Source: an uncultured Pseudomonadota bacterium
GTDB taxonomy: Bacteria; Pseudomonadota; Alphaproteobacteria; RF32; CAG-239
Direction of reading: 5' to 3'
Assembly: GCA_949289935.1 (NCBI GenBank)
Contig: CASEQD010000001.1
Span: forward strand, 81,375 to 145,374
DNA: 64,000 nt
This document shows positions 1,478 to 27,440 of this stretch, in pieces; position 1 is the first letter of the stretch; the number at the start of each line of letters is the position of its first letter. The notes below the pieces were generated by a model, which worked only from the letters and a program-made list of their open reading frames with translations, searched no databases and was not told the DNA's origin. The position numbers and the translations under genes are program-made.

Positions 1478-2125
1478 ATGATGAAAGTCAAATTAAAATT
1501 AACGGCAATAGCCCTGACTCTCTTTGTTTTGTCAGGGTGCGCAGGTATGTGGGAGCCGGCGCCGGAAATGCCTGTGGTTCCCTGTGAGGAGGAAACTTCC
1601 GACAGCAATTTTGAACAGCCGTCCGGCAATGAATTTGTCAACTATACTCAGACGGCTGCAAATTACCGAGAATACGGTGAAAGAACGCCGCGGGATCAAT
1701 ATATTACCCAGGCCGGTGCGGGAAACAATCTTTCGGCAGCCATTCCACCCCGTATAGAAGATGAGTTTATGGACTATGAAGAGGGAATACAATCAGCCGA
1801 AGGCAACGGTGATGAATATTCCGGAGATACCGTTGAAGGCTACACGCCGGAAGATCCCGTGGAAGATTGGCTGGCTGAAGAAGGCAAAACCCTTAAAGCT
1901 CTTTTGTCCGAATGGAGCGAAAAATCCGGCTGGCGTCTGGTTTGGAAATCAAACCGTAATTATACTTTGACAGCAGGCGCTATGTTCAGAGGGCGTTTTG
2001 CAGATGTCAGTTCTGCCCTGATCAGAGCTTTTGCCCGAGCAAGGCCCGCTCCGGTAGCGACGTTTTATAAAGGCAACAGAGTGTTAGTCGTTGAAACTTT
2101 TGAGGATGAGAATGCATATGAATAA
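1478..2125 (+). CDS. Type IVb pilus lipoprotein with TcpQ-like C-terminal domain (PilL/TcpQ-like)
   Basis: Lipobox LSGC; C-terminal WLAEEGKTLKALLSEWSEKSGWRLVW...FRGRF...FYKGNRVLVV; overlaps the secretin gene. Confidence 0.8.
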   Translation: MMKVKLKLTAIALTLFVLSGCAGMWEPAPEMPVVPCEEETSDSNFEQPSGNEFVNYTQTAANYREYGERTPRDQYITQAGAGNNLSAAIPPRIEDEFMDYEEGIQSAEGNGDEYSGDTVEGYTPEDPVEDWLAEEGKTLKALLSEWSEKSGWRLVWKSNRNYTLTAGAMFRGRFADVSSALIRAFARARPAPVATFYKGNRVLVVETFEDENAYE

Positions 2126-3725
2126 TTTATTGAAATACGGCGCCGGTTTAGCTCTTGTTACTATCGCGGCTGCGTGCTCCATGTCTACCAGCATGGATGC
2201 CACCCTTGAAAAAGAAGTTAAAACAACGTCTATGATGCTTGAAGCGGCAAAAGCGCCGACAGAACTGGCTCCGGATGATGTCGTCAGAGTTAAAAACGAT
2301 ATCTGGCTTGGAGATACCAGCAAAATTGAATATGACGGAGATCCGCTTCCCGGTTATCTTGAAGGCCGTGAAGGGATTACGCTTATCAGCAACCGTCCCA
2401 TTACGCTGTTTGAAATCGGCGACATGATTACGAAGATTACATCTGTTAAAGTCCGTTTTGCACCCGATGTCGGAGACGAGACGAAAAAAAGCGCCGAAAC
2501 AAACAAACCGACGCCGGAAACACTCAACGCCGACTGGACTGAACCGGACAAAATGCTTGTTTCATACAGAGGGCCGTTAAGCGGTTTGCTGGATGAAGTC
2601 GCTTCCCGTTTCGGCATTTGGTGGAAATATGACAAGCAGGAAATTTATTTTTATAAATATGTTACAAGAACGTTTGTTTTATACAGCCTGCCGACCAAGC
2701 CGTCCCTGTCCGTGCAAGTCGGCGGACAAACCGAAGGCGATAACGGCAATTCTTCCATTTCACTGACCAGCAGCGTGGAAGTTGAATTGTGGGCCAATAT
2801 TGAAAAAACAATCACATCAATGATTGAGAAAGATGCCAAACTGAGCATTGACTCGGCAAACGGCGTCATTTCGCTGACGGCAAATCCGAATGACATCAGG
2901 AAAGTGGCAAAATACATTAATGAACAGAATGCGCGTTTGTCCCGTCAGGTTGCCATCAGTGTAAAGATTTTGCAGGTTTCCGTTTCAGATTCAGATAAAT
3001 ACGGCCTTGATTTGAGCGCCGCTTTTGATGACGGACAATCGCAAGTTTCACTGCTGAGCCCGATTAACTCCCTCGGCGACGATGTTGCGAAGAATTTGGA
3101 AATGCGCATCATGCCGGGCAACTGGAATATCGGCGCCAGCCTGCAGGCTTTGTCCGAACAAGGGACAACCAACACCATTACCAGTGGTACGGTTACAACT
3201 CTAAATAACAAACCGGCGCCGATTCAAGTGGTTCGTAAACAAAATTATATTTCGGAAATTACAAAAACCAACAGTGGCGGCGACGGAGATTATTACGATA
3301 TTTCTACCGAAACCGAAGAAATCGAAACAGGTTTTACGATGAATGTTTTGCCGAGGATTCTGGAACACGGACGTATGCTTTTGATGTTTGACCTGACGCT
3401 GTCTGATTTGATTTCGCTGGAGAGAGTTCCTCTCGGTACCAATGCGGACGGTGAAGAAAGCGGGGAATATATTCAAAACCCGATTATCGAATCCCGCGGG
3501 TTTAATCAGGAAGTTGCTCTGAAATCAGGAGAATCGCTGGTTTTGACCGGCTATGAAAGAGCTGTAAACACAGCGGAAAAATCCGGCGTCGGTTCGGCGA
3601 CAAATTCTTTGTTTGGCGGTACGGCAACGGCAAGCAAAGACAGAAATATTCTCGTCATTATCCTGACCCCGGTTGTTTTGGAAACGCCGATGAATCCTGA
3701 AACCAGAGTAACAAACAGGATATAA
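2118..3725 (+). CDS. pilN: Type IVb pilus lipoprotein secretin (PilN/BfpB family)
   Basis: Lipobox AAAC; secretin motifs VTTLNNKPAPIQV, GFTMNVLPRI, LKSGESLVLTGYE, LVIILTP. Confidence 0.88.
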   Translation: MNNLLKYGAGLALVTIAAACSMSTSMDATLEKEVKTTSMMLEAAKAPTELAPDDVVRVKNDIWLGDTSKIEYDGDPLPGYLEGREGITLISNRPITLFEIGDMITKITSVKVRFAPDVGDETKKSAETNKPTPETLNADWTEPDKMLVSYRGPLSGLLDEVASRFGIWWKYDKQEIYFYKYVTRTFVLYSLPTKPSLSVQVGGQTEGDNGNSSISLTSSVEVELWANIEKTITSMIEKDAKLSIDSANGVISLTANPNDIRKVAKYINEQNARLSRQVAISVKILQVSVSDSDKYGLDLSAAFDDGQSQVSLLSPINSLGDDVAKNLEMRIMPGNWNIGASLQALSEQGTTNTITSGTVTTLNNKPAPIQVVRKQNYISEITKTNSGGDGDYYDISTETEEIETGFTMNVLPRILEHGRMLLMFDLTLSDLISLERVPLGTNADGEESGEYIQNPIIESRGFNQEVALKSGESLVLTGYERAVNTAEKSGVGSATNSLFGGTATASKDRNILVIILTPVVLETPMNPETRVTNRI

Positions 3726-3756
3726 AAGAAAACATATCGCATAAGGATGTATCAAC

Positions 3757-5031
3757 GTGCTAGAAGATGCAAAGCTATTAGATGAAGATTATGAAGAAGG
3801 CGGCACCAAAACCTGGGCGTCCAAGGTTACCGTCGACGGATTAACTTATGCTACCAACCTGTTCTGGCAGCCACTGCAAAACGTGGAAGATCCCATTTCC
3901 GATGTAAGCGAAGCTTCGGAAGGGATTTTGGAAGGCGCAGATTTGTTTTGCATCAAACAAGGCAAAGCACCTCAGTTTGGTATCTGCGTCTCCCAGCAGG
4001 GATATAAAAGCGGCGAACTGGTCGGCGCCATAACCGTTGCATCGGCATTGGAAGGCCAGTCCTCCTTCGTTGCCGTGTTTAAAGTCGATACGGGTTGGTG
4101 GTATATCTGCGTCAGAAACGATATTATTCTTTCTGACGGCGATATGGTTTTTCTGAATGAGGAAGACGCCAAAAGCCAGTTTATGTCAATGCTGGCCGTT
4201 CCGGACTGGGGCAAGAAAATTGCACCGGCAGAGTGGAACGTTGAAGGAACCGAAGAGATTGATCTTTCAACGTTGATGAAACGCGGCTCAAGAGGAAAGC
4301 TGCAAAAAATCAAGGCTTTGCGTGGTACAAAATTGCTGGTAGTGGTTTCAATTTCGGCAATTGTGGCTTTATGGCTGCTGTTTACGATTATTGACAGCAT
4401 TCTTTTGGCACCGCCCAAGCGGCCGTTGGTTGCACCGATTAAACCCAAAGTCGTTCAGCCGGTTAAAAAGATTCCCGAAATAAAGCCGTGGGAGAAGCTG
4501 ACTGACGCCAAAACACTGATGGTCAAGTGTTATGAAAATATTGCCGCCGTTTCGCAAATACTGCCGCCCGGCTGGGATATCGGCGAAGTGACATGTGACA
4601 AATCCGGCATTAAAACGGCCTGGAAGAGACATGTGGGACGGATTGTGTGGATGAACGAAGCTCTGGATAAGTCCGGCATAAAATTTTCGTCACGAAGCGT
4701 AACCGATGACGGAAACAGTATTTCAGTCGTTGCACCGGTGGGCGAGATTCCCAATGTTTCAGTTGCGCCGACGTTATCCGTCGGAGACCTGAAAGTTACT
4801 CTTAACGACTTGTTTCAGGCCATAGCTCAACCCGTGGCGATTTCGGACTATTCTTTCACGTCGCCGCAAAATACATTGTACCGTTCTGTAAAATTTAAAT
4901 TTTCTTCCGTCAATAATCCGATTGTATGGAAAGATTTGTTAACAAAATTTTCAGGACTTGAGATTATAATGATAAAATATAACAAAGACAGCGAAAGATG
5001 GGATTATGAAGGAGCGATCTATGCGTTATAA
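3757..5031 (+). CDS. Type IVb pilus accessory protein (PilO/BfpC-like)
   Basis: N-terminal NLFWQPL, WWYICVRNDIILSDGD, a single central TM helix; follows the secretin as in pil operons. Confidence 0.75.
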   Translation: MLEDAKLLDEDYEEGGTKTWASKVTVDGLTYATNLFWQPLQNVEDPISDVSEASEGILEGADLFCIKQGKAPQFGICVSQQGYKSGELVGAITVASALEGQSSFVAVFKVDTGWWYICVRNDIILSDGDMVFLNEEDAKSQFMSMLAVPDWGKKIAPAEWNVEGTEEIDLSTLMKRGSRGKLQKIKALRGTKLLVVVSISAIVALWLLFTIIDSILLAPPKRPLVAPIKPKVVQPVKKIPEIKPWEKLTDAKTLMVKCYENIAAVSQILPPGWDIGEVTCDKSGIKTAWKRHVGRIVWMNEALDKSGIKFSSRSVTDDGNSISVVAPVGEIPNVSVAPTLSVGDLKVTLNDLFQAIAQPVAISDYSFTSPQNTLYRSVKFKFSSVNNPIVWKDLLTKFSGLEIIMIKYNKDSERWDYEGAIYAL

Positions 5032-6520
5032 TATGAAAAACATTTTAAGTGGGACGGCTTTGGCTTTGTTCATCGGGCTGACGGCTCCGGCAGTTGTTTG
5101 TGCGCAGGCATTAACTCCGAACGATCTTCCCCAGCTGGATATTAATCCCCGGGGGCAGGATGCGGCCGGCGGCGTAAAAGAAATTGACGTTAATATAAAC
5201 GTTAACGAACCTATTCCTCTGGATAATGCGGCTCCGGCATCTGAAGCGCAGCCTCTTTCTTTGCAGGATAATTCTTTTGATCCTATTTTGCCGGCTGATG
5301 ACAATGCGCCTATTTTGCCGCCTGAAGGAAATGCTCCTATTTTGCCGGCAGATAATAACGCCCCTATCCTTCCGGCAGACAATGTTCATGCAGATCCGTT
5401 TCCTCCGGCAGCTCATGATCCGTTGCTGCAACCGGCTTCGAATCCGGTACCGGCTCGCGATCCGTTGCTGCCTCACGGAAATAATAACAGCCTGGATAAT
5501 GAAATTCCGGATTTAATTAATGTTGATTCAACTGAAGACGATTCTGCCTCCGGCGATGATATTCTGAATCAGATTGACAGCAACCTGTTTTCGAAAATGT
5601 CTTCCATTGAAAAGCAATCGGCGTTGCTTTCTTTGGAACTGAGACGGGAAAAAATCCGCAATGAAATTGCCGCCATAAAAGCACAGCGCAAACAAGCCGA
5701 GGAAGAAGAGCTTGCCCGTGAAGAAGAGCGGCGTATGAAAAAACAGGAATGGGAAAACGAACAACAACGGAAACTTCTGGTTGAACAACAAAAGCTGGAA
5801 GAGCTGAAAAACCAGCAAGAAGCCCTGCGTCAGGAAAAAATCGTCAAAGCCTATAAAGAAACCATGTTGCAGGAAAAGCAGGAATGGATTAAGCAGACGG
5901 CGGATATTTATAATCAGATGAAGCAGATTGAAGACGAACGCGATGCCATTATCAACGACTTCAAAATGAAGCTGAACAACCTGAAAAATATTGCCGCCAA
6001 AAACGTTGCCAGCGCACAATCGGCAAAAGAGCGTTACACGCAGGCCATTAACAGCCTGAAAACACAGTTGTCCATCGTTCAATCGAGACTGGATGCCGAA
6101 TTGAGCGCCAAAGTTGCCAAAAACAATCCGTTTGCCACAGTTCCCGATGAAAGCACAATAAAACTCAATGATGTTTATGTTATTATGGAAATTGCCGGCA
6201 AGGGAGAAAATCTGGCTGCCAAGCTGATGAATAAAAACGGCGATCGTTTTCTGGTCAGAAAGGGAACAATTTTGCAGACCGGACACATTATTGATGAAAT
6301 TACGGAGACTTATATCCGCGCGGATTTGGACGGCGTGAAAGATTATTTGTTCTTTGCGGCAGGCGGCATTCTTGACAGCGAACCACAAAAGAGTTCTGTT
6401 CTTAAGGATGCTCAGGCAGCTTTGGGCGGCGTTCAGGCTCAGGGTACGGCCGGCGGCAGCGCAGCCAATGTTAACACATCGGCAATTCCGAGCCTGGGTG
6501 AAGGAATGTTTGTCAGGTAA
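5021..6520 (+). CDS. PilP-like type IVb pilus biogenesis protein (signal peptide, Pro-rich repeats, long coiled coil, small beta C-terminal domain)
   Basis: Lies between the PilO-like gene and the ATPase; C-terminal IMEIAGKGENLAAKL...VRKGTILQTGHIIDEI. Confidence 0.6.
   Translation: MRYNMKNILSGTALALFIGLTAPAVVCAQALTPNDLPQLDINPRGQDAAGGVKEIDVNINVNEPIPLDNAAPASEAQPLSLQDNSFDPILPADDNAPILPPEGNAPILPADNNAPILPADNVHADPFPPAAHDPLLQPASNPVPARDPLLPHGNNNSLDNEIPDLINVDSTEDDSASGDDILNQIDSNLFSKMSSIEKQSALLSLELRREKIRNEIAAIKAQRKQAEEEELAREEERRMKKQEWENEQQRKLLVEQQKLEELKNQQEALRQEKIVKAYKETMLQEKQEWIKQTADIYNQMKQIEDERDAIINDFKMKLNNLKNIAAKNVASAQSAKERYTQAINSLKTQLSIVQSRLDAELSAKVAKNNPFATVPDESTIKLNDVYVIMEIAGKGENLAAKLMNKNGDRFLVRKGTILQTGHIIDEITETYIRADLDGVKDYLFFAAGGILDSEPQKSSVLKDAQAALGGVQAQGTAGGSAANVNTSAIPSLGEGMFVR
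5282..5389 (+). repeat. Four 27-nt coding tandem repeats (PILPxxxNA)
   Basis: cctattttgccg-type unit at 5282, 5309, 5336 and 5363. Confidence 0.9.
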
Positions 6521-6528: not shown

Positions 6529-8229
6529 ATGGCGGAAGATTCCGAAGAAATCAAAGAAGAACAGCCTCTGCAAAATCCGGAAGAGACTCAAACGCCGGAA
6601 GAAGCAAAGGCTGTTTCAGGTGTTGAGGCAAATGATGCTTATGACCGGCAAATAGAAAAACCGGTTAACAAAATTGAAGCTCTGTTTCAGCACGGAAACC
6701 GCCTGTTGACTCTTTCCAGCAATGCCAACCTCGTTATCAACGACGATACGCGGCGTCTGCTGGCTTTGTTTTCCGACGGGCGTTTTCTGGTGTCGGAAAC
6801 GCACAAGTTTGACGGACGCGTTCTCAGTTTTGAGGTTTTGGCCAGAAAGAAAAAGCTGCCCATCAGCAAACCCGAATATGTTTCGCAAAACGAACTAAAC
6901 GCCATTTATGCCATCGGCGAACGTTCGCAGGTTAATGTCGAGGGAGACGCGGACCTTGACCAGCTGCAAATGCAGAAAGACTTTGTTACGGTGGTGGCGC
7001 GCGCAGCATCTTCAAAAGTTTCGGATATTCACATTGTGGTCGGCAGCAGCACACAGATTATGTTTCGCACCAACGGCATGATGCAGGTGGTGATGGAATA
7101 CAGCAAAGAATGGGGCGAATCTTTTGTGCGTGCGGCTTTTGCTTCTTCGGACATTTCAGATTCCAACTATGCCCAAAACGAGTTTCAGGGTGCCCAAAAG
7201 CTTGGATCCACACCGTTGAGAGGTTCCAAGGGCAAATTGATGCTGCCGCATAACATTCTGGCTATCCGTCTGCAGTTCAACCCGATTGCTTTCGGCTCGC
7301 AATATCTGGTCATGCGTCTGCTTTATGCCGATGACAACCCGGACGGAAGCGGTGATCTGGCTTCGCTCGGTTTTGGCGAATATGAAGAAAATCTGTTTTA
7401 TCGTCTGCGGGCGGTGCCGGTGGGACTGAGTATCATCGCCGGTCCGACCGGTTCGGGAAAAAGCACAACCCTGCAGCGCAACATGATTAAGCTTCTGCAG
7501 GAAAAAAACTACGAAATCAACCTGATTACGGTGGAAGATCCGCCGGAATATCCCATTCCCGGCGCACGACAGATGCCGGTTACGAACGCCAACAGCGAAG
7601 AAGAAAAAGATGAAGAATTTACCAAGGCTTTGTCGGCGGCGCTGCGTTCCGACCCGGATGTGATGATGGTCGGCGAGGTTCGCTCCATCGCCGCGGCTGA
7701 GTTAACTTTCAAAGGCGCTTTGTCAGGGCACGGCGTGTGGACGACGCTTCACGCCAACAGCGCACCGGCAATTGTCACACGTTTGCGCGATATGGGCGTC
7801 AAAACCTTTATGTTAAACGATCCCGAACTCATCAAAGGGCTGATTTCGCAACGTTTGTTCCGCCGTCTGTGTCCGCACTGCCGGGTGTCGGTTAAGGAAC
7901 ATCTGGACTCGCCTTCCGTTCAACGACTGAAAATCGCGCTGGGCGATTTCGGAATTGAAAATACGTATATGCGCGGCCCGGGCTGCAAATATTGCGACAA
8001 TACCGGCATCAAGGGGCGCATGTGCGTTCCGGAAATCATTTTGCCGGATGCGACTTTTCTTGATTTGATGATATCCGGCGAAACGCGCAAAGCCATTGAC
8101 TATTGGACGAGCGACCTCAACGGGCGCACGCTGAAAGACGCGGCTATTGAACGCATGCTTAAAGGATATATTGATTTGGACGAGGTAGAGCGCTGGACGG
8201 GGCTGATGGATCAGCGCCCGGCTTATTAA
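6529..8229 (+). CDS. Pilus assembly ATPase (GspE/PilB family; PilQ/BfpD-like)
   Basis: Walker A GPTGSGKS, TVEDPPEY, LRSDPDVMMVGEVR, His box TTLHANS, CPHC...CKYC Zn motif. Confidence 0.93.
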   Translation: MAEDSEEIKEEQPLQNPEETQTPEEAKAVSGVEANDAYDRQIEKPVNKIEALFQHGNRLLTLSSNANLVINDDTRRLLALFSDGRFLVSETHKFDGRVLSFEVLARKKKLPISKPEYVSQNELNAIYAIGERSQVNVEGDADLDQLQMQKDFVTVVARAASSKVSDIHIVVGSSTQIMFRTNGMMQVVMEYSKEWGESFVRAAFASSDISDSNYAQNEFQGAQKLGSTPLRGSKGKLMLPHNILAIRLQFNPIAFGSQYLVMRLLYADDNPDGSGDLASLGFGEYEENLFYRLRAVPVGLSIIAGPTGSGKSTTLQRNMIKLLQEKNYEINLITVEDPPEYPIPGARQMPVTNANSEEEKDEEFTKALSAALRSDPDVMMVGEVRSIAAAELTFKGALSGHGVWTTLHANSAPAIVTRLRDMGVKTFMLNDPELIKGLISQRLFRRLCPHCRVSVKEHLDSPSVQRLKIALGDFGIENTYMRGPGCKYCDNTGIKGRMCVPEIILPDATFLDLMISGETRKAIDYWTSDLNGRTLKDAAIERMLKGYIDLDEVERWTGLMDQRPAY

Positions 8230-8251: not shown

Positions 8252-9382
8252 ATGGAAGAAAAAGAAAAGGAAAGAAAAAAGCAGACCTCCCTCGACAAGG
8301 CCATGAGAAGCCTTGGTACGGTGGAAGTGTATTATGCCAAAATGATTTGCCGGATGTCTAACGGCGTCAGGCTGAAAATCTACCGTAAGCTGGCATCGCT
8401 GCTCCGGAACCGTTTTTCGTTGATGAATGCGCTTGATCTTATTCATAACGGGTTCAGCAACGGCGGACGAAACCCCAAAGAGCCGATGGCCATCGCCATT
8501 GCCGCCTGGGGACGCGCGCTCCAAAACGGGCAGCCTTTTTCGGAAGCATTGCGCGGTTGGGCGCCGAATCGTGAAAGACTTATGCTTTCGGTGGGCGATG
8601 TATCGGACATGGAAAGCGCCATTCTCAACCTTATCCGTGTTTCGGAAGGTACGACAAAAATGATCCGGCCGATTGTGGGCGCCATTACTTATCCGTCTTT
8701 TTTGTTTATGATGTCGGTGTTGATTATTTATGCCATCGGGGCTTTTATGGTTCCGCCCATGCTCGAGGCGGCGCCGAACGTGCGCTGGCGGGGCATGGCA
8801 GCCGATTTGGTCGATTTGTCTTATTGGATAAGAGACAACTGGGTTTTTGCCTTTTCCCTTCTGCCGGTTATCGGCTGTACCATTTATTTTACCATCGGGG
8901 TATGGACCGGCCGGGCAAGAGCCTTTTTTGACCATATTCCGCCCTGGTCGCTGTATAAAATTTTTTCGGGATTAAGCTGGCTGTTGTCTTTGTCGGCTCT
9001 GGTCGGCAGCGGCACGCCTGTTTCAACAGCTTTGCGCGCGCTGCGGCGCGATGCCAACCGTTATCTCAAAGAGAGAATCGACAAGACGCTTGTTTTTGTC
9101 AACAACGGCGACAACCTCGGACAGGCTTTGTTTAAAACCGGGCTTGACTATCCGGATCCGGAAATTATCAACGATTTGAAAATTTATTCCGAACTGGACA
9201 ATTTTGAAGAAGCCCTGACGAATCTGGCTACGGAATGGCTGGATGAGAGCGTCTATATGATTGAAAACAAGGCTTCCATTTTGAACATGATTGCCATTCT
9301 GACCGTGGCGGGCATTATTGCCTGGGCGGTGATGGGCACGTTTGAAATGCAAGACCAGATTACCAGCTCTATGGGAATTTAG
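8252..9382 (+). CDS. Inner-membrane platform protein (GspF family; PilR/BfpE-like)
   Basis: Two GspF-like repeats with three TM segments; directly after the ATPase. Confidence 0.88.
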   Translation: MEEKEKERKKQTSLDKAMRSLGTVEVYYAKMICRMSNGVRLKIYRKLASLLRNRFSLMNALDLIHNGFSNGGRNPKEPMAIAIAAWGRALQNGQPFSEALRGWAPNRERLMLSVGDVSDMESAILNLIRVSEGTTKMIRPIVGAITYPSFLFMMSVLIIYAIGAFMVPPMLEAAPNVRWRGMAADLVDLSYWIRDNWVFAFSLLPVIGCTIYFTIGVWTGRARAFFDHIPPWSLYKIFSGLSWLLSLSALVGSGTPVSTALRALRRDANRYLKERIDKTLVFVNNGDNLGQALFKTGLDYPDPEIINDLKIYSELDNFEEALTNLATEWLDESVYMIENKASILNMIAILTVAGIIAWAVMGTFEMQDQITSSMGI

Positions 9383-9386
9383 CGGC

Positions 9387-10767: not shown

Positions 10768-10795
10768 AGCCGCCGGTTTTTCCGGCGGCTTTTTT
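10768..10795 (+). terminator. Rho-independent terminator after the pilin
   Basis: AGCCGCCGG-TTTTT-CCGGCGGCT followed by a T run. Confidence 0.85.
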
Positions 10796-11183: not shown

Positions 11184-11203
11184 GAATATGCCGGACGGAA
11201 AGA

Positions 11204-11917: not shown

Positions 11918-11936
11918 GTGTTTCAAATCCGGTTTT

Positions 11937-12284: not shown

Positions 12285-12297
12285 GAGGCGCTTCCTT

Positions 12298-16774: not shown

Positions 16775-16884
16775 AACCTGTTATTTGTTTATAACGTAAA
16801 AACCTAAAAATCAAGTTTCTTTTATAACTATCATAAAATTAAACAAGTTTCATTTTTCTTACTTTAGCGACTTAAGTTTTGGCT

Positions 16885-17994: not shown

Positions 17995-18091
17995 TGCCTT
18001 TTTCCTTTTATTTTTTACACTTTTTTCATTAAATACAGTTAAATATAATCATAAATAATTAACAGAGAATAAAAAGGACGGTAAAAGAAAA

Positions 18092-18592: not shown

Positions 18593-18670
18593 TAAACTTT
18601 TTTCTTGATAAAAAAGCGCCACACGGCTATACTCCTCAGCAATTATTTATTTTTATAAAATTATTATAAT

Positions 18671-19273: not shown

Positions 19274-19291
19274 TTAACTGCTGAAATTTTT

Positions 19292-19328
19292 AAAAGCCTT
19301 AAATCGCAAAGATTTAAGGCTTTTTTTT
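19292..19328. terminator. Bidirectional terminator
   Basis: AAAAGCCTTAAATC-GCAAA-GATTTAAGGCTTTT between convergent genes. Confidence 0.85.
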
Positions 19329-20715
19329 ATTTTCCTGTCAAAATAGTTTCAATCAATTTTTTGACCGTCGGCACGCCTTCCCGATACAATGGATCCGTTG
19401 CAAAACGGTAAACGTGATGTCCGGCAAACAACAAATTGTCTTTTACGCTGCCGTTATGCCCGATGTCATACAAAGTTTTATGAATGCAATATGAACGCGG
19501 ATCAGGAAGCTTTCCGGTTGTTCCTTCCGCCTTAGACCAGGTAGAAAACTGGCATTGCGACAAACAACCGAGACAATTTGCCCGGTCGTTTTTCATTTGC
19601 TTAACCTCATCCGGCGTCATAAAAACAATTGTTTTATCCGGAGTTTCCTGAACAGACGTAAAACCTGCCCGGATTTGTTTTTCTGCTTTTGCGGCATCAT
19701 CGGCTTTTATATAAACCGTTTTATATTCATTTAGCGGGAATTCCAATGCAAATTCTTCATTTTGTTCTTTTGAATAAGGGATTTCACCGTTTTTCCGGTT
19801 AATAAGCTTCTGCAGGAAAGAATTTCTAATCGCCGAAGAAAAAAATCCGGTCGGACTAAATCTTTGCAAAATAACATCGCCTTTTTTAACCTGCATCATA
19901 ACTTTTTGCCAAGCTTCACTCACAGGACTTTCTTTGGTAATCATCGGCCGGGTACCAAACTGAAAAGCGATTTTGCCGATTTCCGGATTATTGATATAAT
20001 CCTTCCATTCATCCAGATTCCAAACGCCGCCGGCAATAATAATCGGAATATTTGAAAGATTTAATTTATTCAAGACCTGCCGCAATTCGACTAAGCGGGC
20101 GTAAGGTTTTTGCGGTTCATTCGGGTTTTCGGCATTGGAAAGACCATTATGTCCGCCGGCCAGCCACGGATCTTCATAAACAACGCCGCCCAAAAATTCG
20201 GTAAATTTCGAATAGGCCCGTTTCCATAATACCTGAAAAGCTCGTGCGGAAGAAACAATCGGATAATAATAAACACCGAATTTTGAAGCCAGCTCTCCCA
20301 GATGATAAGGCAGTCCGGCACCGCAGGTAACACCGTGAATCAAACCTTTGGCTTTTTCCAAAACACCTTCGATAATTCGTTCTGAATCGGCCAGTTCCCA
20401 CAACATGTTCATGTGTATACGGCCGTTTCCTCCGGAAATTTCATGGGCAACCTGCGCTTGGGCAATTCCGCCCTTAATAGCATTTTGCACCATTTCTTCA
20501 TGACGTTCCAAACGATTTTTGGAATGATATTCCTGAATGACGACACTTCCGTTTTCATCATAAAAATCGGGACTAACGCCGGAAAAAGTGCCGACGCAGT
20601 TTTCTTTTGCCCAAGCCCCCGAACTGGAGCCGTTGCTGACGTTAATGCCTTTTCCACCCTCAATTAAGGGTAAAACTTCCTTCCCGGAAATCATTATAGG
20701 ATCTAATTTTATCAA
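19327..20715 (-). CDS. Nitronate monooxygenase/FabK-family flavoprotein with a Cys cluster
   Basis: IEGGKG, GAGLP, PIVSSAR, AGGHNG, AGGVW, QFGTR; CLGCLSQC...C. Confidence 0.85.
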   Translation of the reverse strand: MIKLDPIMISGKEVLPLIEGGKGINVSNGSSSGAWAKENCVGTFSGVSPDFYDENGSVVIQEYHSKNRLERHEEMVQNAIKGGIAQAQVAHEISGGNGRIHMNMLWELADSERIIEGVLEKAKGLIHGVTCGAGLPYHLGELASKFGVYYYPIVSSARAFQVLWKRAYSKFTEFLGGVVYEDPWLAGGHNGLSNAENPNEPQKPYARLVELRQVLNKLNLSNIPIIIAGGVWNLDEWKDYINNPEIGKIAFQFGTRPMITKESPVSEAWQKVMMQVKKGDVILQRFSPTGFFSSAIRNSFLQKLINRKNGEIPYSKEQNEEFALEFPLNEYKTVYIKADDAAKAEKQIRAGFTSVQETPDKTIVFMTPDEVKQMKNDRANCLGCLSQCQFSTWSKAEGTTGKLPDPRSYCIHKTLYDIGHNGSVKDNLLFAGHHVYRFATDPLYREGVPTVKKLIETILTGK

Positions 20716-20809
20716 AGCACTTCCTTAAATCTTATTTTTTTAAACTGAATTTACTATAACATAAAAAAATAAATTGTGTAGCAGAAAATGCCATTTGTTA
20801 AAAGCGTTT

Positions 20810-22282
20810 CTACAAAGCCAAATCCAGCAACCCGTCGGGAATTTCGTTAATAAAGACCAGAGCGATAAGAATGCAGATAAATGCATAAACCTGCAGCATC
20901 TGAGTAAAAGATCTGTTTTGAAAAGCCGGAATTTTTGTGCTGTATTCGGTAAAGATTTTATGAATGGCAAACATTAACAGCGTAATCGCAAATCCCTGAA
21001 TTCCAACGCCCATATCAATAATAAAATCTTTAACAGGATCAAGAATCATATAAAGGCAGCCGAAAAAAACCATATAAACGGCAACAACGGCAATGGTAAT
21101 CTTTCTGATCTTGGCATTTTCACTGATTTTTTCGGCCTTGTTTTTTCTAAGATTTTCAACTGAAATTGAAGAAATCTCCATTCCCCGGATCATTTGCGGC
21201 GTTTCTTTTTGCCGGCGGATGTCTGACATTGTTCCCCTGAACCGTTCCTCAGCGGCGCATAAACCACAGCCTTTGGCCGTAAAATAAACATGATCCGGAT
21301 TTTTTTTGCAGGGCTTCATATTGTGCAGCAGATTGTGCAGATGTTCCTGCCATTCCTGAGCCGAAGGTCTTTTTTCACCGCGGGCAAAAACCCGTTCGAA
21401 AAGTTCAAGGGTTTTCTTGTCAAAATATTCATGCAATGAATAGGGATGCGGCGCCTGATAAGTATCCGGCCATAAACCGTAGGCATAATGATATTGTTCA
21501 ATGCGGTTTTGGATGGTGAGCATTTCGCCGTCATTTTTCCTTGGCACGCCCGAAAAAGGATGTATACCATTATTCAGCAGTTTGAAAATCATCACTGCTA
21601 GGGCAAATTTATCTTGTTCTTCACCCATTTCGTCGCAAGACTGGGTCATGCCTTCAGGATAAATGTATTCTTCACTCACAAATTCGGCCGGGTAACGGTT
21701 GTTCCTTTCTCCTTTGATGGAAAAACCGTCGCAGTCAACCATGGCCACCATCATGGAATCTTTATAAACCGAAACATTGGAAGGTTTCAGGTCAACAATG
21801 TAATGTCCGCAACTGTGAAGAGCCGCTACCATTGAAGCAACATTGTAAGCCGCAAAAACACGGTAAGCATATTTTTCCGGCAACTGCAGTTTTTTACGGA
21901 TGGCCTTTTGCATCAGATGGTCAAGAGATACGGCTTTGCTCATGTCTATCAGCGGCATTAAATAGCCGACGCAAAAACCGTTTTCATCATCCAGAACGGC
22001 TTCCGGCCATGCAATCTGTACATATTCGATTCCATCTTTAACGGCAGGCGGAAAATTCGGCCTGTTCAACAACATAGCTTCAAGTTTTTTACGGTTGACG
22101 GCGCTTTTGTTTTTATTATGAAAAATTTTTGCCACCAATTTCGGATGCCCTTCCGCCGCATAAATTTTCCCGGCAGCGCCGCCGCGGTTAATCAGCCCGC
22201 CCAATCTGATTTTTTCAAAATGCCCGTCGGCATATAAAGCTGTATAAACAGCCGGAGCGGTATTATCAATCTGTCCTTCCAT
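20810..22282 (-). CDS. TerY-P triad Ser/Thr kinase-like protein with Zn ribbon and C-terminal TM helices
   Basis: GGAAGKIY, AKIF, IAWP, DLKPSNV, DCDGF, HPF, C....H......CGLC; start overlaps the phosphatase stop (TGATG). Confidence 0.85.
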   Translation of the reverse strand: MEGQIDNTAPAVYTALYADGHFEKIRLGGLINRGGAAGKIYAAEGHPKLVAKIFHNKNKSAVNRKKLEAMLLNRPNFPPAVKDGIEYVQIAWPEAVLDDENGFCVGYLMPLIDMSKAVSLDHLMQKAIRKKLQLPEKYAYRVFAAYNVASMVAALHSCGHYIVDLKPSNVSVYKDSMMVAMVDCDGFSIKGERNNRYPAEFVSEEYIYPEGMTQSCDEMGEEQDKFALAVMIFKLLNNGIHPFSGVPRKNDGEMLTIQNRIEQYHYAYGLWPDTYQAPHPYSLHEYFDKKTLELFERVFARGEKRPSAQEWQEHLHNLLHNMKPCKKNPDHVYFTAKGCGLCAAEERFRGTMSDIRRQKETPQMIRGMEISSISVENLRKNKAEKISENAKIRKITIAVVAVYMVFFGCLYMILDPVKDFIIDMGVGIQGFAITLLMFAIHKIFTEYSTKIPAFQNRSFTQMLQVYAFICILIALVFINEIPDGLLDLAL

Positions 22283-23031
22283 CAGATTTTTGCCCACAAC
22301 AAAGTTTTGTCATCAGAGTTCAGTCTTTTGGCCAGAGGCGTATTTAACGTATTGTTCAATGCCCTGACAGCTTTGTTTTTGCAGCAGGCATTACAGAGAA
22401 ATTCATTAATCGGAGCGATAAAGCCCTTTTCAATCCGCGAAAAGTCCGGAGAAAAAGCAAAATTTGTCAGTCCGTCGCTCATCAAAAAAATTGTATCGGC
22501 ATTTTCAAAGTCCGTAAAACGCAGGCTGTCCAACCAATCATCCATGGTATAAAAAAACGTTTCACAGGCAAAACGTCCGTTTTCGGGCAGAGAAGCCGTA
22601 AATTGTTCATAATTGTCCCGTTTCAGAGCAATGGCCGCACCATCGCCGATATGAAAGAATATCCCCTTTCCGGCACAGCAGGCGGCGCCGACCACCGTTG
22701 CCGAAAAATCAATCATTCCGGCATTGTCTTTGTTTTTGTTCAGGCGGTGGCGCATGATTTTTTTTCTGGCCACTTCAATAGCCAGAGGAATTTTTTCTTT
22801 TATCTTGTCAAACGGACAGTCAGCCAGCAGATCGACCAGTGTATCGCAAACGGTTTTTGCCCCGATTTTGCCATATTTTGCCGATCCGGCACCATCAGAC
22901 ACCACGGCAACAAAATTTTTACCGCCGGTTTTGTGCTTAAAATAGTCTTGACAAGGAAGTTTGCAATATTTATGCATCGGTCCGCAGACGCTGGCCGCCA
23001 CTACTTTGATTTTGCTATTGTTCTTCGTCAT
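22282..23031 (-). CDS. TerY-P triad PP2C-like phosphatase
   Basis: H....PCQD, VSDGAGSA, HIGDG, MSDG, DDKT. Confidence 0.9.
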   Translation of the reverse strand: MTKNNSKIKVVAASVCGPMHKYCKLPCQDYFKHKTGGKNFVAVVSDGAGSAKYGKIGAKTVCDTLVDLLADCPFDKIKEKIPLAIEVARKKIMRHRLNKNKDNAGMIDFSATVVGAACCAGKGIFFHIGDGAAIALKRDNYEQFTASLPENGRFACETFFYTMDDWLDSLRFTDFENADTIFLMSDGLTNFAFSPDFSRIEKGFIAPINEFLCNACCKNKAVRALNNTLNTPLAKRLNSDDKTLLWAKI

Positions 23032-23713
23032 CCCATTCCCCGGTATCTTCCAACAAATCAGGAACATTCGGCGCGGCCTTTGAAACACAGGATACACTGC
23101 GCGACAACCACAGGAAAAATTCCGTAAATTTAAGACCGGTCAGCCGTTTGGGCGAGATAGTCGAAAATTTTGCCAGCTTTTCCAGATTTGCCCCCTGGGT
23201 TCCAACAGCATGAATAACTACTTTTTTGTTTTTTTGCGCATAGCGACATTTTTCCGCCACAATTTCCCAGTCATAATCCGTCGGTTCGCCGTCGCTGATA
23301 AGAAAAATCCACGGCCGTTTGGAGGTAATGCCACAGCTGTCATACAGGCATTTCTGTTCTTCAATTTTTTGCAAGGCCAGTTCCATGGCTTTTCCCAAAG
23401 GCGTCAAGCCGCCGGCTTCCATTTCCGGGGCTTCGAAATTCATGGCGTCAATCCAGTCGGAAGAAACAAGGGCTTCATCTTTGCCGAAAGCTTTGATAAT
23501 CAGGAGTTGCACGCGCGAGCTGGCATCAATGTCTTCTTTAAGTTCTTTTTCCAGCGCTTTCAACCCGGCATTAAGCTGCTTAATCGGCTCGCCGCGCATG
23601 GATCCCGAACAATCAAGCACCAACACACAGGGAGTGCGCTCGTTGGCATTGTCGGCAAACTCCACATAGGGAATCATTTCTTCAATATATTTATTTTCGT
23701 TTTCTTCGGCCAT
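23015..23713 (-). CDS. terY: TerY-like vWA domain protein
   Basis: MIDAS LDCSGSM, GLTPLG, RPWIFLISDGEPTD, FFLWLSRS. Confidence 0.88.
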   Translation of the reverse strand: MAEENENKYIEEMIPYVEFADNANERTPCVLVLDCSGSMRGEPIKQLNAGLKALEKELKEDIDASSRVQLLIIKAFGKDEALVSSDWIDAMNFEAPEMEAGGLTPLGKAMELALQKIEEQKCLYDSCGITSKRPWIFLISDGEPTDYDWEIVAEKCRYAQKNKKVVIHAVGTQGANLEKLAKFSTISPKRLTGLKFTEFFLWLSRSVSCVSKAAPNVPDLLEDTGEWDDEEQ

Positions 23714-23734
23714 GGCAGAAACTCGCTTTCTCAA

Positions 23735-23863
23735 TTATCTGTGCGGATAAGCATGCGGATATCCGCTTCCCTCAACGGGCTTCGGCGCGGAGACTTTTCC
23801 GCAGGCAGACAGGCTTCCCGCCAGCAAAACGGCCGCTGCCAGAAGAAACAACATTTTTTTCAT
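23735..23863 (-). CDS. 42-aa lipoprotein (LptM/YifL-like), absent from the ORF track
   Basis: Manual translation MKKMLFLLAAAVLLAGSLSA-CGKVSAPKPVEGSGYPHAYPHR; lipobox LSAC. Confidence 0.8.
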   Translation of the reverse strand: MKKMLFLLAAAVLLAGSLSACGKVSAPKPVEGSGYPHAYPHR

Positions 23864-23957
23864 GATTTTGAAACCTTTTTGCTGTATTTATATTAAGTAT
23901 AGTAGATTATATACTATTAAACAGAGGTAAACACAAACCTATATTTGAGTTATTACC

Positions 23958-24488
23958 ATGATAAAAAAATTTTTGCTGGCAATATTTTTGTGCGCAGGGT
24001 TTGTTGCCACAGCCGCAGCAGGGGAAAAAGGCGTCAATATTTATGATTCGCCGCGCAAAGTTCCGTCCAAAGAGCTGCTGCACAACGACATGAAACGTTA
24101 CAAACTGTCTGATTTTAAAGACAAATTTGTTTTGGCAATGTTTTGGTCGCGCAACTGCACTCCCTGCGTTAAGGAGCTGAAGAGTGTTAATAATATGGCT
24201 CAAAAGGTAAAAGACAACGGCATTAAAGTTGTGTTGATTTCGCCCTCCCAAGAATGGAAAGACACTGCCGAACAACGTCGTTTCCTTGATAAATTCGGTG
24301 CCAAAGACATTGATTTTTATACCGATGAAAAAAGCGGTCTTGCCTCTGAATTCGGCATATTTACGTCGCCACATACGGTGCTGATAAACAAAAAAGGTGA
24401 AGAAATCGGCCGCATCCGCGGGGCTGCAGAATGGGACGACAAAGATGTGATAGATTATTTGTACAAGCTTCAGGCCGAACACGGGTAA
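23958..24488 (+). CDS. TlpA/ResA-like thiol-disulfide oxidoreductase
   Basis: Signal peptide; FWSRNCTPCVKE. Confidence 0.88.
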   Translation: MIKKFLLAIFLCAGFVATAAAGEKGVNIYDSPRKVPSKELLHNDMKRYKLSDFKDKFVLAMFWSRNCTPCVKELKSVNNMAQKVKDNGIKVVLISPSQEWKDTAEQRRFLDKFGAKDIDFYTDEKSGLASEFGIFTSPHTVLINKKGEEIGRIRGAAEWDDKDVIDYLYKLQAEHG

Positions 24489-24506
24489 AAAAAACAGGTA
24501 AACAAG

Positions 24507-24935
24507 ATGAGCGAAAAATATTATATCAGCTGGGAAGAATTTCATCAAGATGCCAAGCATCTGGCGCAAAAGCTAAAAAACGGCGGTTACAACAAAATTA
24601 TCGCCGTCAGCCGCGGCGGGCTCCTTCCGGCGGGGATTTTGGCTTATGAGTTGGATATTCGCAATTCACAGGCAGTTAATGTTTCCAGTTACGACAATGA
24701 CGAGTTTCGCGCCGATGCCGATGTTAAAATAGATTGTCCGGCAGGAGAGGCGGATGAACACACACTGATTGTGGATGATCTCTCCGACAGCGGACGCACC
24801 TTCCGTCTGATGCGGACATTATTTCCGCGGGCGCATTTTGTTGCGGTATATGCCAAACCGCGGGGAAAAAGCGTGGTAGATACCTGTGCGCGCGAAATTC
24901 CCGACAACTGGGTTGTTTTTCCCTGGGACATATAA
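24507..24935 (+). CDS. gpt: Xanthine-guanine phosphoribosyltransferase
   Basis: ISWEEF, AVSRGGL, IVDDLSDSGRT, WVVFPWD. Confidence 0.9.
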   Translation: MSEKYYISWEEFHQDAKHLAQKLKNGGYNKIIAVSRGGLLPAGILAYELDIRNSQAVNVSSYDNDEFRADADVKIDCPAGEADEHTLIVDDLSDSGRTFRLMRTLFPRAHFVAVYAKPRGKSVVDTCAREIPDNWVVFPWDI

Positions 24936-24984
24936 AAAAACCGGGGGTTTTCCCCGGTAAAACAAAAAAATATTCTGTTGCGGC

Positions 24985-25950
24985 TTATAAATCCGGAAAC
25001 ATATTCATTCCTTTGGACAAACGGGTCATCTGCGTTTCCATGGATGTTGCCAGATTCAACTTGCCGCTTTTGATAATGCCCCGCACCTGATCGCCTTTGT
25101 TGGTGTCCGGATTGGCAAACAGATAAGTGAGTTGCGGATGACGACCGGCGCCGATTCCGACCAGAGTTTGATGCAAAACGCCAAGCATACCACGAGAAAA
25201 CAGATCATAAGCCAATTCTTCACTCATGGAGGTTGATGAAGCATATTTTACCACCGAGTTGATGGCATCAGCCACGTTGTTGCCGTGGATGGAAGACAGC
25301 ACCAAGTGCCCGGATGTTGCCGCACGCAGCGCTTCACTGGCGGTTTCCGGTGTTCTTATCTCACCTACCAAAATATAGCGCGGTTTGGAACGCAGAGCCG
25401 ATTTCAGGCCTGCCCCCCAGTCTCCGTCAGGCGGAATATTCTGCTTGCACAACCCAAGCCCGCCGCTGCGGGAGTGATATACGCCATCCAGCGGCATTTC
25501 GCACGGGTCTTCAATTGTATAAGCAAAACCGCCTTCCGTTTGCAAATATTCTTTCAACAGAGCAGAAAGGGAAGTTGTTTTACCCTGTCCCGTCGGCCCC
25601 GCCCACAGGATAAGACCGGAAGCGTTGCTCAGGCTTTTGAGATAAGTAACCAGATTTTGGTCAAATCCCAGTGTGGAAAGCGGCGGTACCTGCTTGGGCA
25701 TTTTTCGTCCGCAATATTGCGGGCCGTAAATGCTCATTGTCCGTTCAATACGGTAAAACACACCGTCATACAACAGTGAATAGCTGGGATTGTGTCCGTC
25801 CCAGGCTTCTTGCAGCTGCTTGTAGAATTCTTCAAAATCTTCCGCCGGCAGGATGGCAAGACCGTTCCGGGTTTTTCCGTCCGGAATAAATGCCTTCTTG
25901 TCCGGTGTAACATAAATATCCGAAAATTTTACATCATTAATTTTTACCAT
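24985..25950 (-). CDS. PilT/BfpF-like secretion-family ATPase (putative retraction motor)
   Basis: GPTGQGKT, TIEDPCE, ALRSKPRYILVGEIR, SGHLVLSSIH; short (~320 aa) with no Zn-Cys motif. Confidence 0.82.
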   Translation of the reverse strand: MVKINDVKFSDIYVTPDKKAFIPDGKTRNGLAILPAEDFEEFYKQLQEAWDGHNPSYSLLYDGVFYRIERTMSIYGPQYCGRKMPKQVPPLSTLGFDQNLVTYLKSLSNASGLILWAGPTGQGKTTSLSALLKEYLQTEGGFAYTIEDPCEMPLDGVYHSRSGGLGLCKQNIPPDGDWGAGLKSALRSKPRYILVGEIRTPETASEALRAATSGHLVLSSIHGNNVADAINSVVKYASSTSMSEELAYDLFSRGMLGVLHQTLVGIGAGRHPQLTYLFANPDTNKGDQVRGIIKSGKLNLATSMETQMTRLSKGMNMFPDL

Positions 25951-26070
25951 TGTTTCAAACACCTAAAAGAACCACACTTTTTCTCAGTTTAGCGGGAATA
26001 GGTTAAGAAAAGATAAACCTGTTTCTTCCAACATCAGGCTTTCTTTTCCCTACGGCGGAAATAAAATCAT

Positions 26071-27042
26071 CTAGAACTCAATCACCGGACGGACAGAGTT
26101 GGCGGCGTCCTTAGCTATGTTAATGCGTCCGAATCCACCTGTAACCGACATGTCAAAGTTCCATGCGTAACGTTGATTGTTTTCGGAGGACGACCACCAC
26201 ATATCGTAAGCAATGTTTACTTTGTTGATTCTGATCAGGCTTTGATTTATAATTGTTTTATTTTTATAAATGCTTTCTAATACACCTCCGGCCGGTAAAC
26301 ACCATTTGCCTTTTGTTTCCGTTGATGGGGCATAGTTGTACACCTTCCAAAACGCCGGGTAATATTTAGAGGCACTATCTCCGTATTGTTTATAACTGTA
26401 ATCAATAACAGTTTTCGTATTTTCACAGCTGGCAAAATCGTTTGTCGGAGCATTGCTGTAATTCGGTAAATCTGGAATATCAATGTCTTCCGTTGACCAT
26501 TCAAATCCTCCCAGTCCTTCCAGAGCCAAGGCCTGTCCGCAGCCGTCCCCGCCGATATAGGCCACAACGCCGACCGGTTCAACCCCGCTGACGCGGTAGT
26601 CCGAACAGCTGCCGTCAATATTTAAGATTTGCCCGATTTTACAGTTTTTGGCATAGCCGGTGCACTGGCCGAGAATCGCTCCGGCTCTCTTTGTGCATTT
26701 TCCATCTTTCCATTCATAACCGGAAGCGCAGGCGCAGGAAGCATATTTGTTATTGCAGGGCGTTCCGCTGCCGGAAGCATAGCCGGTACCGGAACAATCG
26801 TATTTGAAGCCGTATTCGGCGCAGGTTTCTTCCTTGCTGGACGGGCACGCCCATTTATCGCCGAACGGGCATTTGATGCCTTTGCCGTTCGGGCAGGAAG
26901 TTTCGGTATAACCCAAAGTGGCGCAGTCGGTGGTTGCGATACATTGGGCGGAAACAGAAACTGGGAACATAAAAGAAGAAGCCAGCAGGATAAAATATTT
27001 ACCTCTGGCGGAATAAGAAATCACACACATTTCATTCTCCAC
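26071..27042 (-). CDS. Secreted Cys-rich protein with a C-terminal CLec/DUF1566-like domain (DGR-target-like)
   Basis: Signal peptide, Cys-rich N-terminal half, WCLPAGG and terminal WWSSSE...AW...K.....VRPVIEF. Confidence 0.75.
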   Translation of the reverse strand: MENEMCVISYSARGKYFILLASSFMFPVSVSAQCIATTDCATLGYTETSCPNGKGIKCPFGDKWACPSSKEETCAEYGFKYDCSGTGYASGSGTPCNNKYASCACASGYEWKDGKCTKRAGAILGQCTGYAKNCKIGQILNIDGSCSDYRVSGVEPVGVVAYIGGDGCGQALALEGLGGFEWSTEDIDIPDLPNYSNAPTNDFASCENTKTVIDYSYKQYGDSASKYYPAFWKVYNYAPSTETKGKWCLPAGGVLESIYKNKTIINQSLIRINKVNIAYDMWWSSSENNQRYAWNFDMSVTGGFGRINIAKDAANSVRPVIEF

Positions 27043-27137
27043 ACTTTATTACACTGGTTTTAGTGTAGCATGGATTTTGCAATTGTTCAATCATTATTTT
27101 CATGTAAAAGTGAAAAAAATGAAGAGGATTTTTTTAT

Positions 27138-27440
27138 TGAATCATACCCTCCCTAACCCTCCCTACTCAGGGAGGGAATGCGAGGGGCACTACTCAGGGA
27201 GGGAATGAGGGGGGGTAAAGCGAAGCTGCTTCGGTCAACTGAATTGTAACGATTGTTTCCTTAGGCTGTTGCCTGTTCGCAATCTAACAATTCAGACTCT
27301 GTCGTTGAAAAACAATTCAGATGATTGGTTTTGAATCATACCCTCCCTACTCAGGGAGGGGAAAACGGGGATTACTCAGGGGAGGAGAAAGAAGAGGCTA
27401 CTCAGAGAGGGGATATAAGGAAAGGGGCTACCCGGAAGGA
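27138..27440. repeat. Composite intergenic repeat, locus 2: REP-like palindromes around the 101-bp core
   Basis: Perfect CCCTCCCT-ACTC-AGGGAGGG at 27157-27176 and 27341-27360 plus degenerate copies. Confidence 0.88.
27219..27319 (+). repeat. 101-bp structured element, copy 2
   Basis: Direct repeat of 10884-10984 with 4 substitutions. Confidence 0.9.

Follow-up and report, generated by a model that had tools for sequence, protein, structure and literature searches.

Diversity-generating retroelements (DGRs), in which a reverse transcriptase (RT) and a template repeat (TR) serve to vary the variable repeat (VR) of target genes, have been described with limited numbers of targets. In its accessible text, the survey of Wu et al. 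2018 (PMC5758913) gives maxima of 8 adjacent and 7 non-adjacent targets and defines an Architecture B1 with the order avd-TR-RT; in the accessible portion of the survey by Roux 2021 (PMC8144416), remote targets were not detected. The available parts of further papers report one TR per genome and 2–7 targets in Treponema denticola (Nimkulrat 2016, PMC4891356), two TRs and six VRs in Stenotrophomonas (Yan 2019, PMC6642488), up to 6 target genes per metagenome-assembled genome (PMC11661182), 9 loci and 15 targets in Thiohalocapsa PB-PSB1 (Dore 2024, PMC10907252), 18 TR/VR loci in Trichodesmium (PMC8867640), dispersed DGR paralogues in cyanobacteria (Vallota-Eastman 2020, PMC7517822) and DGRs acting on type V pilus tip adhesins in Bacteroides (10.1101/2024.11.15.621889). 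Here, we analyse a stretch of 64,000 nucleotides (the window; G000:C1:81375-145374, that is, contig C1 of the source genome G000, which comprises 1.72 Mb in 67 contigs) in which a gene for a secreted-type, Cys-rich lectin lies next to a gene for a PilT-like ATPase. We consider it probable that the tips of the dispersed paralogues of this lectin were rewritten in trans by a chromosomal DGR with several templates, and that the window gene came to stand beside pilT by insertion and a repeat-bounded inversion. Comparison sets were 14 congeners, 24 relatives' loci and 150 genomes of the taxonomic family; the named relatives of the G000 RT belong to uncultured Alphaproteobacteria of the gut, such as Ca. 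Scatocola and CAG:495.

The lectin gene and its parts lie in the window as follows (CLec, C-type lectin; class 1 denotes the largest VR class, treated below):

26071..27042, minus strand: secreted-type Cys-rich protein with a C-terminal CLec/Lcl-C domain, member of a DGR target family of about 100 genes (103 phmmer matches in G000; AlphaFold2, Foldseek)
26071..26196, minus strand: VR region of this lectin, drifted from the present templates (comparison with TR1; synonymous drift from the class-1 frame)
27043..27150, minus strand: 5′ module common to lectin-family genes (it occurs in 57 copies, 46 of them immediately before such a gene)

An earlier note on this DNA had read the C-terminus of the gene as DGR-type, and this reading holds, with a predicted CLec fold and a VR at the 3′ end in the frame WSSSE...RPVIEF. 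The AlphaFold2 model (pLDDT 90.7) finds its top Foldseek match in 4EPS from Bacteroides (E 2e-7) and a further one in 8Q4E, the C-terminal domain of Legionella Lcl (E 1e-5). Pfam Lcl_C matches 22 of 83 aligned family members, the window copy not being among them, and the ESM Atlas returns only unnamed or Lcl_C clusters. In G000 the family amounts to 103 open reading frames (ORFs; phmmer) on 47 of the 67 contigs, together 81.7 kb or 4.8% of the genome; 72 have a PVxxF end and 51 are complete from signal peptide to this end. An AxA↓QC-type signal-peptide cleavage motif (the arrow marks the cleavage site) is found in 72 of the 103 ORFs, none of these 72 with a lipobox. Lectin-family matches number 28–93 in all 14 congeners and 0–13 in other genera. 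A sigma-70 scan at the window lectin yielded sites no more numerous than in shuffles.

Gene exchange among paralogues, also suggested before, is supported by the window gene, which is a mosaic: compared with C1:39574 it is 97% identical in the first 100 nt and 52% at 400–500, and compared with C13:14115 it is 47% identical in the first 100 nt and 97% at 200–300. Among database homologues, the scaffolds of P0097 and P0111 are 96% identical and their tips 58%, while P0082 and P0100 join scaffolds of 78% identity to identical tips (100%). A family tree built in quick mode, from rows chosen by similarity to the window gene, places 38 of 40 own-genome paralogues on one side. Separately, the Cys-rich N-terminal motif of the family recurs at the C-terminus of other ORFs (C25:10637, C33:1, C39:1700, C53:14161, C58:2 and C3:2) and may be a mobile module.

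Trans-acting DGR mutagenesis had been put forward as one route of lectin variation, and the system that we find is larger than proposed. G000 encodes a single RT (contig C30, intact 454-aa frame, single RVT_1 match) with the motifs GLPIGNLTSQ and YVDD; the first conforms to GxxxSQ, which we take to be diagnostic of the DGR clade. Its best match in the Protein Data Bank (PDB) is the reverse transcriptase of 8UB7-8UBE, presumably the Brt of Bordetella phage, with E 1e-30 versus 5e-6 for a maturase. One Avd with intact frame is encoded on contig C26 (Pfam bAvd 64.4 bits, above the cut-off of 40; NCBIfam DivGenRetAVD 60, below 80; phmmer against the PDB, no match), and behind avd lie two tandem spacer+TR units that are non-coding and rich in AAC, as befits an AAY-rich template. 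Differences between TR and VR that are confined to adenines occur at family level, in C39, C60 and the targets of relative G002. The gene C39:446-1570 departs from TR2 at 20 of 38 adenines and at 0 of 98 other positions and is probably the adjacent target of the cassette, because of its synteny with G001 and an overlap of contig ends; the remote target C60:8018 departs from TR1 at 24 of 38 adenines and 1 of 75 other positions. In the sequencing run from which the genome probably derives, there is also a second VR colinear with TR2 that the assembly lacks; nearly all of its 17 differences fall on template adenines. Its depth (29; C39 23, other paralogue contigs about 39–48, all contigs of one run) fits two coexisting alleles or an unassembled paralogue. 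Among the 62 genes with a full VR frame, 8 belong to the template class of C39/C60 and 21 to a second class. Twenty class-1 genes vary at positions 1–2 of their variable codons, where A is commonest (127/280), and have C or T at third positions (129/140), the imprint expected from an AAY-codon template.

The relatives carry longer arrays. In G001, G008, G020, G023, G007, G002 and G010 the cassette is contiguous in the order avd-TR-RT, with 7, 7, 7, 6, 3, 2 and 1 spacer+TR units, respectively, between avd and RT; no unit was matched there in G003, G004, G005 and G012. Across 25 alphaproteobacterial RT loci (GTDB), counted after four pattern matches inside target genes had been set aside by eye, 13 have at least two units, 6 have one, and 6 have none or no room. 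Templates within one array are 55–92% alike, with the exception of one identical pair in G007, and the array spacers contain common hairpins, in which 8 of 26 pairs have changed on both sides. Targets sort by the templates of their own genome: 15 of 16 remote VRs of G002 show at most 5 non-adenine differences, 9 of them to TR1 and 6 to TR2, against 14–20 to the best foreign template, and the remote VRs fit own templates in 9 of 14 cases in G010 and 3 of 7 in G008. Targets with zero non-adenine differences exist for two different TRs each in G001 (TR1, TR4) and G020 (TR1, TR2).

Two side observations belong to these loci. In G003, G005, G012 and G004 the RT follows avd after about 140 bp with no template between; G003 and G005 keep the upstream target with a fresh-looking VR, and the template may lie elsewhere or be lost. 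On contig C185 of G015, 3′ of an avd-like gene, an ORF with a flagellin-like N-terminus ends, by eye, in a CLec-like W-S-S frame, which suggests a DGR-varied flagellin-like protein.

On the basis of established DGR biology, we thus propose a mechanism in which each unit of the array would yield its own template RNA, a shared RT-Avd complex would copy this RNA with errors at adenines, and the mutated copy would replace any frame-matching VR in trans. Templates would be gained and lost, leaving old imprints such as that of the window copy, and recombination would swap starts, scaffolds and tips among the paralogues. The lectins would leave the cell interior by the Sec route and serve as binding proteins of variable specificity.

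Several results weigh against this proposal. The window VR itself differs from TR1 at 19 of 37 adenines and 30 of 83 other positions (p = 0.09) and fails the adenine test; 35 TRs from 8 genomes contain no better fit. Since 8 synonymous and 5 non-synonymous changes have accumulated at conserved codons of the class-1 frame, this copy looks like an old, drifted product that is now out of reach of the templates. A class-1 template was found neither in G000 nor in the 150 genomes of the taxonomic family nor in metagenome contigs (0 matches), and among the loose ends listed for the source run no extra spacer copy was seen, contigs alone not showing absence. In G007 the three templates account for only 4 of 34 VRs, most others sharing a frame to which none of the present templates corresponds; in both G000 and G007 the commonest VR imprint thus lacks a template in the assembly, for which template turnover or assembly loss may be the cause. 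The VRs of the relatives had been pre-selected by a template-derived motif and therefore make up a minority within each family (in G002, 16 out of 70 matches). Four of the 14 congeners (G006, G009, G011 and G014) hold 28–93 family matches with no RT found, a site-incompatibility test for scaffold recombination was saturated and not significant (p = 0.37), and the cassette of G000 is split, with avd-TR1-TR2 on C26 and RT on C30. A downstream hairpin was tried as a mark of targets and rejected, as it accompanies 2 of 27 fresh, 7 of 35 stale and 110 of 1205 background cases.

Part of this evidence is shared by the alternative that the DGR of G000 is a relic, with a broken cassette and most templates lost, the family varying mainly by gene conversion as in the congeners without RT. 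The separation of RT from avd-TR in G000 would fit a relic, the three being contiguous in G001 and G008, as would the 2 units of G000 compared with 7 in its nearest relatives, a third unit apparently being broken off after TR2. The missing dominant class-1 template and the identical VRs on different scaffolds in relatives point the same way, and T. denticola offers, in the available part of its description, a precedent of leftover targets without a core (PMC4891356). However, the frames of RT and Avd are intact, C39 shows no non-adenine difference from TR2, and the second TR2-colinear VR of the source run differs nearly always at template adenines, although it could be an unassembled paralogue. 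We therefore regard a relic as possible but unlikely, and retain the rewriting in trans by a DGR with several templates.

Whether the lectins have anything to do with a pilus is a separate matter. The earlier note had combined a type IVb operon ending in a pilin, a remote PilT-like motor, the lectin and a shared repeat into a distributed pilus system with a variable tip. The operon is present (1460-10744, plus strand), from TcpQ to the PilS/Bundlin genes:

1460..2125, plus strand: TcpQ-domain lipoprotein-like gene (Pfam TcpQ, E 1.5e-16)
2091..3725, plus strand: PilN-type secretin (TIGR02520, E 4e-82, slightly below cut-off; Pfam Secretin)
3757..5031, plus strand: PilO-like accessory protein (Pfam PAP_PilO, E 2.8e-12)
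5006..6520, plus strand: PilP-like protein (weak TIGR03021, E 3e-4)
6529..8229, plus strand: assembly ATPase, PilQ/PilB-like (Pfam T2SSE, E 1e-64)
8252..9382, plus strand: platform protein, PilR/T2SSF (Pfam T2SSF, E 2.5e-23)
9342..10013, plus strand: pilin-like gene without the GRSMVE motif (Pfam PilS/Bundlin, weak)
10184..10744, plus strand: probable major pilin with the motif G↓RSMVE (Pfam Bundlin/PilS, E about 5e-15; motif scan)
10768..10790, plus strand: terminator-like hairpin at the end of the operon (relatives likewise have a hairpin between pilin and pilT)

As in type IVb systems, PilN secretin, PilO, PilP, ATPase, platform and PilS-type pilins are united in one operon, which is chromosomal, dnaA/dnaN-like genes lying within the same window. 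Type IVb pilins have a long leader and a hydrophobic +1 residue; pilin 10184-10744 has neither, with an 11-residue leader from the ATG at 10184 and the predicted mature start R-S-M-V-E. A short leader with Arg at +1 is unusual among type IV pilins, and a motif scan of G000 detects the pilin motif in just 2 genes genome-wide. No prepilin peptidase is found among the annotated genes of the operon, the rest of the genome not having been searched for one. A second, stand-alone PilS/Bundlin pilin with an N-methyl motif is located at G000:C5:105106-105654 (plus strand). At 40634-41107 of the window, immediately upstream of a dnaA-like gene, a 145-nt unit is repeated in tandem, with three full copies and a partial one.

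The R64 shufflon equips PilV with alternative invertible C-terminal segments and has an adjacent recombinase. G000 encodes a PilV-like prepilin (G000:C21:8986-11784, minus strand; 932 aa, weak Shufflon_N match) far from the pilus operon and, by inspection, beside flagellar-type genes; the neighbouring ORFs, likewise by inspection, contain neither alternative ends nor a recombinase. In all 24 genomes of the taxonomic family that were compared, the PilV-like prepilin is single and conserved at its C-terminus, and the C-terminal domain, one per genome, is 63–82% identical across the 14 congeners. With a repeat that is not enriched at pilins, a lectin-pilT neighbourhood seen only in G000 and a single-copy PilV-like protein of conserved C-terminus, the proposed distributed variable-tip pilus is not supported.

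A weaker form of this idea is that the type IVb pilus displays or secretes the lectins, their conserved Cys-rich N-terminal module docking on the invariant PilV-like tip, so that DGR and recombination would vary the tip; it is compatible with the DGR part of our explanation. The AxA↓QC-type signal without lipobox implies that a route out of the periplasm is needed, and one conserved PilV-like prepilin is at hand throughout the 24 genomes. In the available part of its description, the N-terminus of TcpF hooks onto TcpB (PMC9565799), and display in this manner is, by analogy, possible for the lectins. Genera without lectin expansion hold 26–82 pilin-like matches versus 2–4 in this genus, and the top match of the modelled fold, 4EPS, is of the Bacteroides type V tip-pilin type according to the accessible text of 10.1101/2024.11.15.621889. 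On the other hand, genomic coupling is absent: none of the 24 loci of relatives has a lectin beside pilT, the operon is separated from the nearest family gene by 15 kb and the second pilin by 3.1 kb, and the PilV contig has no family gene; given about 100 copies, a family gene beside one of four pilus loci would be unremarkable. Whereas TcpF is encoded in its own pilus operon, the lectin genes, other than expected of TcpF/CofJ-type proteins, are not, and no class III signal peptide was found in the family. A complex prediction for three PilV-like C-terminal domains and the mature lectin (score 0.00, mark 0.32) speaks neither for nor against the idea. Display on the pilus seems improbable to us. 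The same holds for its most far-reaching version, an antibody-like repertoire in which one RT-Avd and a CRISPR-like template array of exchangeable template RNAs would rewrite dozens of dispersed lectins by class, recombination would reshuffle their starts, scaffolds and tips, the lectins would dock on the invariant pilus tip protein and sister genera would amplify pilins instead; this, too, we judge improbable. As an observation in its own right, the expansions within the taxonomic family mirror each other: G016, G021 and G018 have 82, 54 and 26 pilin-like matches and 0–1 lectin matches, and this genus has 2–4 pilins and 28–93 lectins; three pilin copies inspected in G016 are whole pilins of about 200–270 aa.

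An inversion and a common repeat probably account for the apparent link between lectin and pilus, and the following features matter here:

24985..25962, minus strand: PilT-like ATPase (TIGR01420, 112 bits versus a cut-off of 319)
11204..27042, no strand: block of about 16 kb that runs in reverse compared with congeners, as judged by gene order in 5 relatives (methyltransferase ... cmk, rpsA ... vWA, redoxin, PRT, pilT, lectin)
10806..11190, no strand: left repeat cluster, its core (10884-10997) within inverted arms of about 36 nt, with short CCCTACTCAGGG-type units behind them; the inferred inversion has its left end here
27151..27460, no strand: right repeat cluster with core 27219-27332; right end of the inferred inversion

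As had been noticed before, the two clusters share a core of 114 nt (93% identity, same orientation), the left one being predicted to form one long hairpin (z = -8.9). The link between pilin and lectin that had been built on two copies dissolves genome-wide, where G000 has 51 copies of the core at 42 loci, with 88–98% identity. The suggested mapping of the repeat gave a divided answer. It is tied to lectin genes, with 28 of the 42 loci within 500 bp of a family gene, 20 of these on the 5′ side; it is not tied to pilin genes, with a pilin neighbour at 1 of 42 loci, and 11 of the remaining 14 loci are at contig ends. Intergenic gaps with the repeat make up 25 of 83 beside lectin-family genes versus 16 of 359 others (p = 2e-10), and the repeat stands upstream of only 21 of 75 assessable family genes. 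The repeat is hence an element dispersed throughout the genome, and its enrichment concerns lectin genes and not pilins. Close copies of the core were seen only in G000, and 9 of 14 congeners have short, diverged matches; the element appears to have been amplified recently in this species. An IS200/RAYT-type transposase as its mobiliser was not found in G000, apart from one weak broken match, and neither the repeat nor the TR arrays reach the gathering score of any Rfam family. Neisseria repeats of the Sma/Cla type flank pilin loci, to which the present repeat is not confined. We would liken it to BoxC-like bacterial interspersed palindromic repeats, with which it shares short purine/pyrimidine-skewed units in intergenic clusters, although its 114-nt core, its inverted arms, its recent amplification and its enrichment at lectin genes set it apart. 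As further observations, the sole DUF559 gene of G000 (C26:30869-31183) sits among short palindromic repeats upstream of avd, and G013 has a DUF559-like gene between pilin and pilT.

The PilT-like protein possesses Walker A, Asp box, Walker B and His box and lacks AIRNLIRE, a motif of PilT retraction ATPases, and is therefore called only PilT-like. Its gene, a single match per genome in 13 of 14 congeners, lies on the same (minus) strand as the lectin and 108 bp from it, the lectin being upstream, as the earlier note had it. In the relatives, pilT is not remote: the pilin is directly upstream of it at 13 of 24 loci (10 of 13 congeners), usually with the hairpin and about 140 bp between, and a lectin-family gene within 1.5 kb of pilT occurs at 0 of 24. 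Over 31–40 kb, 5 of 5 relatives show the order pilin-pilT-PRT-redoxin-vWA ... rpsA-cmk ... methyltransferase, with methyltransferase and LMWPc adjacent in both relatives whose retrieved DNA extended that far. In the window this block is reversed, ends in both repeat clusters and bears the lectin at one end; the distance of pilT from the operon would thus follow from the inversion of the block. In G007 and G012, lectin genes occur elsewhere within the same block. A triad of von Willebrand factor A (vWA), PP2C-like phosphatase and kinase genes at 20810-23734 (minus strand), presumably of the TerY-P type, is kept in the congeners examined.

We infer that the inversion of the 16-kb block in G000 is real, since the core is entered in one and the same direction from either flank and the two former adjacencies are reciprocally broken. 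Only one sequencing run, probably that of the source sample, contains the locus; its contigs match four unique stretches without difference and break at both repeat clusters. That the order arose by misassembly through the repeats, the true one being pilin, lectin, pilT, is improbable, even though the genome is a short-read metagenome assembly in which no listed source-run piece spans either cluster and repeat words occupy 33 of 134 contig ends. As the pilin flank and the lectin upstream region run into the core in the same direction, the ancestral order could not be walked through one core copy; both ancestral adjacencies are reciprocally broken, and the lectin would in any case remain a species-specific insertion. 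The short repeats may have seeded the inversion, and the lectin likely came to adjoin pilT by insertion and repeat-bounded inversion rather than through a functional link; its tie to the pilus is likely an accident of both.

Compared with the R64, TCP and CFA-III type IVb pili, the operon has the same TcpQ/PilN/O/P/Q/R/S gene set, and the genome a PilV-like prepilin with a weak Shufflon_N match, yet the genes are chromosomal, the C-terminus of the PilV-like protein is single and conserved, no secreted partner is encoded in the operon, and the pilin has a short leader with Arg at +1. With respect to the pilus claim, the outcome is a useful negative. The type V tip DGRs of Bacteroides resemble the present system in their occurrence in gut bacteria and in a CLec domain like that of PDB 4EPS; as far as the available text describes them (10.1101/2024.11.15.621889), they mostly concern lipoprotein pilins beside stalk and anchor genes, in contrast to lectins without lipobox or linkage to pilus genes. 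The accessible descriptions of Thiohalocapsa PB-PSB1 and of the cyanobacterial paralogues (PMC10907252, PMC7517822) share with our system activity in trans on remote targets and intragenomic duplication of targets; Thiohalocapsa differs in having several RT classes and conflict or signalling domains, where G000 has one RT, one array and secreted proteins with a single CLec. In T. denticola one chromosomal RT, dispersed targets and leftover targets from lost templates are likewise reported, but its targets, as given in the available portion of PMC4891356, are mostly lipoproteins and its accessory gene is of the HRDC type, unlike the Avd, several TRs and about 100 non-lipoprotein paralogues found here.

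DGRs with more than one template per RT are known with DUF1566-type targets, yet in the available parts of those papers neither tandem arrays of 6–7 spacer+TR units nor remote targets sorted by template are described. In full-text literature searches, neither tandem TR arrays nor DGRs of this lineage were found described; such cases subscription papers or the supplements of PMC5758913, PMC8144416, PMC11661182 and PMC6642488 may list. The system opens to experiment the processing of a DGR RNA array, the recognition of remote targets that mostly lack a downstream hairpin, and the turnover of templates; a naturally occurring cassette with several templates is also a model for multiplexed DGR-based directed evolution. 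Its closest counterpart is Architecture B1, in so far as PMC5758913 is available, with which it has in common the order avd-TR-RT in relatives, an AAC-rich TR, a 3′-terminal VR in a CLec fold and adenine-specific differences, and from which it differs by 2–7 distinct spacer+TR units, tens of targets across the genome and the detachment of RT in G000. Altogether, while the accessible surveys give maxima of 6–8 targets per DGR, or 15–18 per genome where several DGRs are counted together, the present 1.7-Mb genome has about 100 paralogues for a single RT, and the arrays of relatives comprise up to 7 distinct templates by which the targets are sorted.

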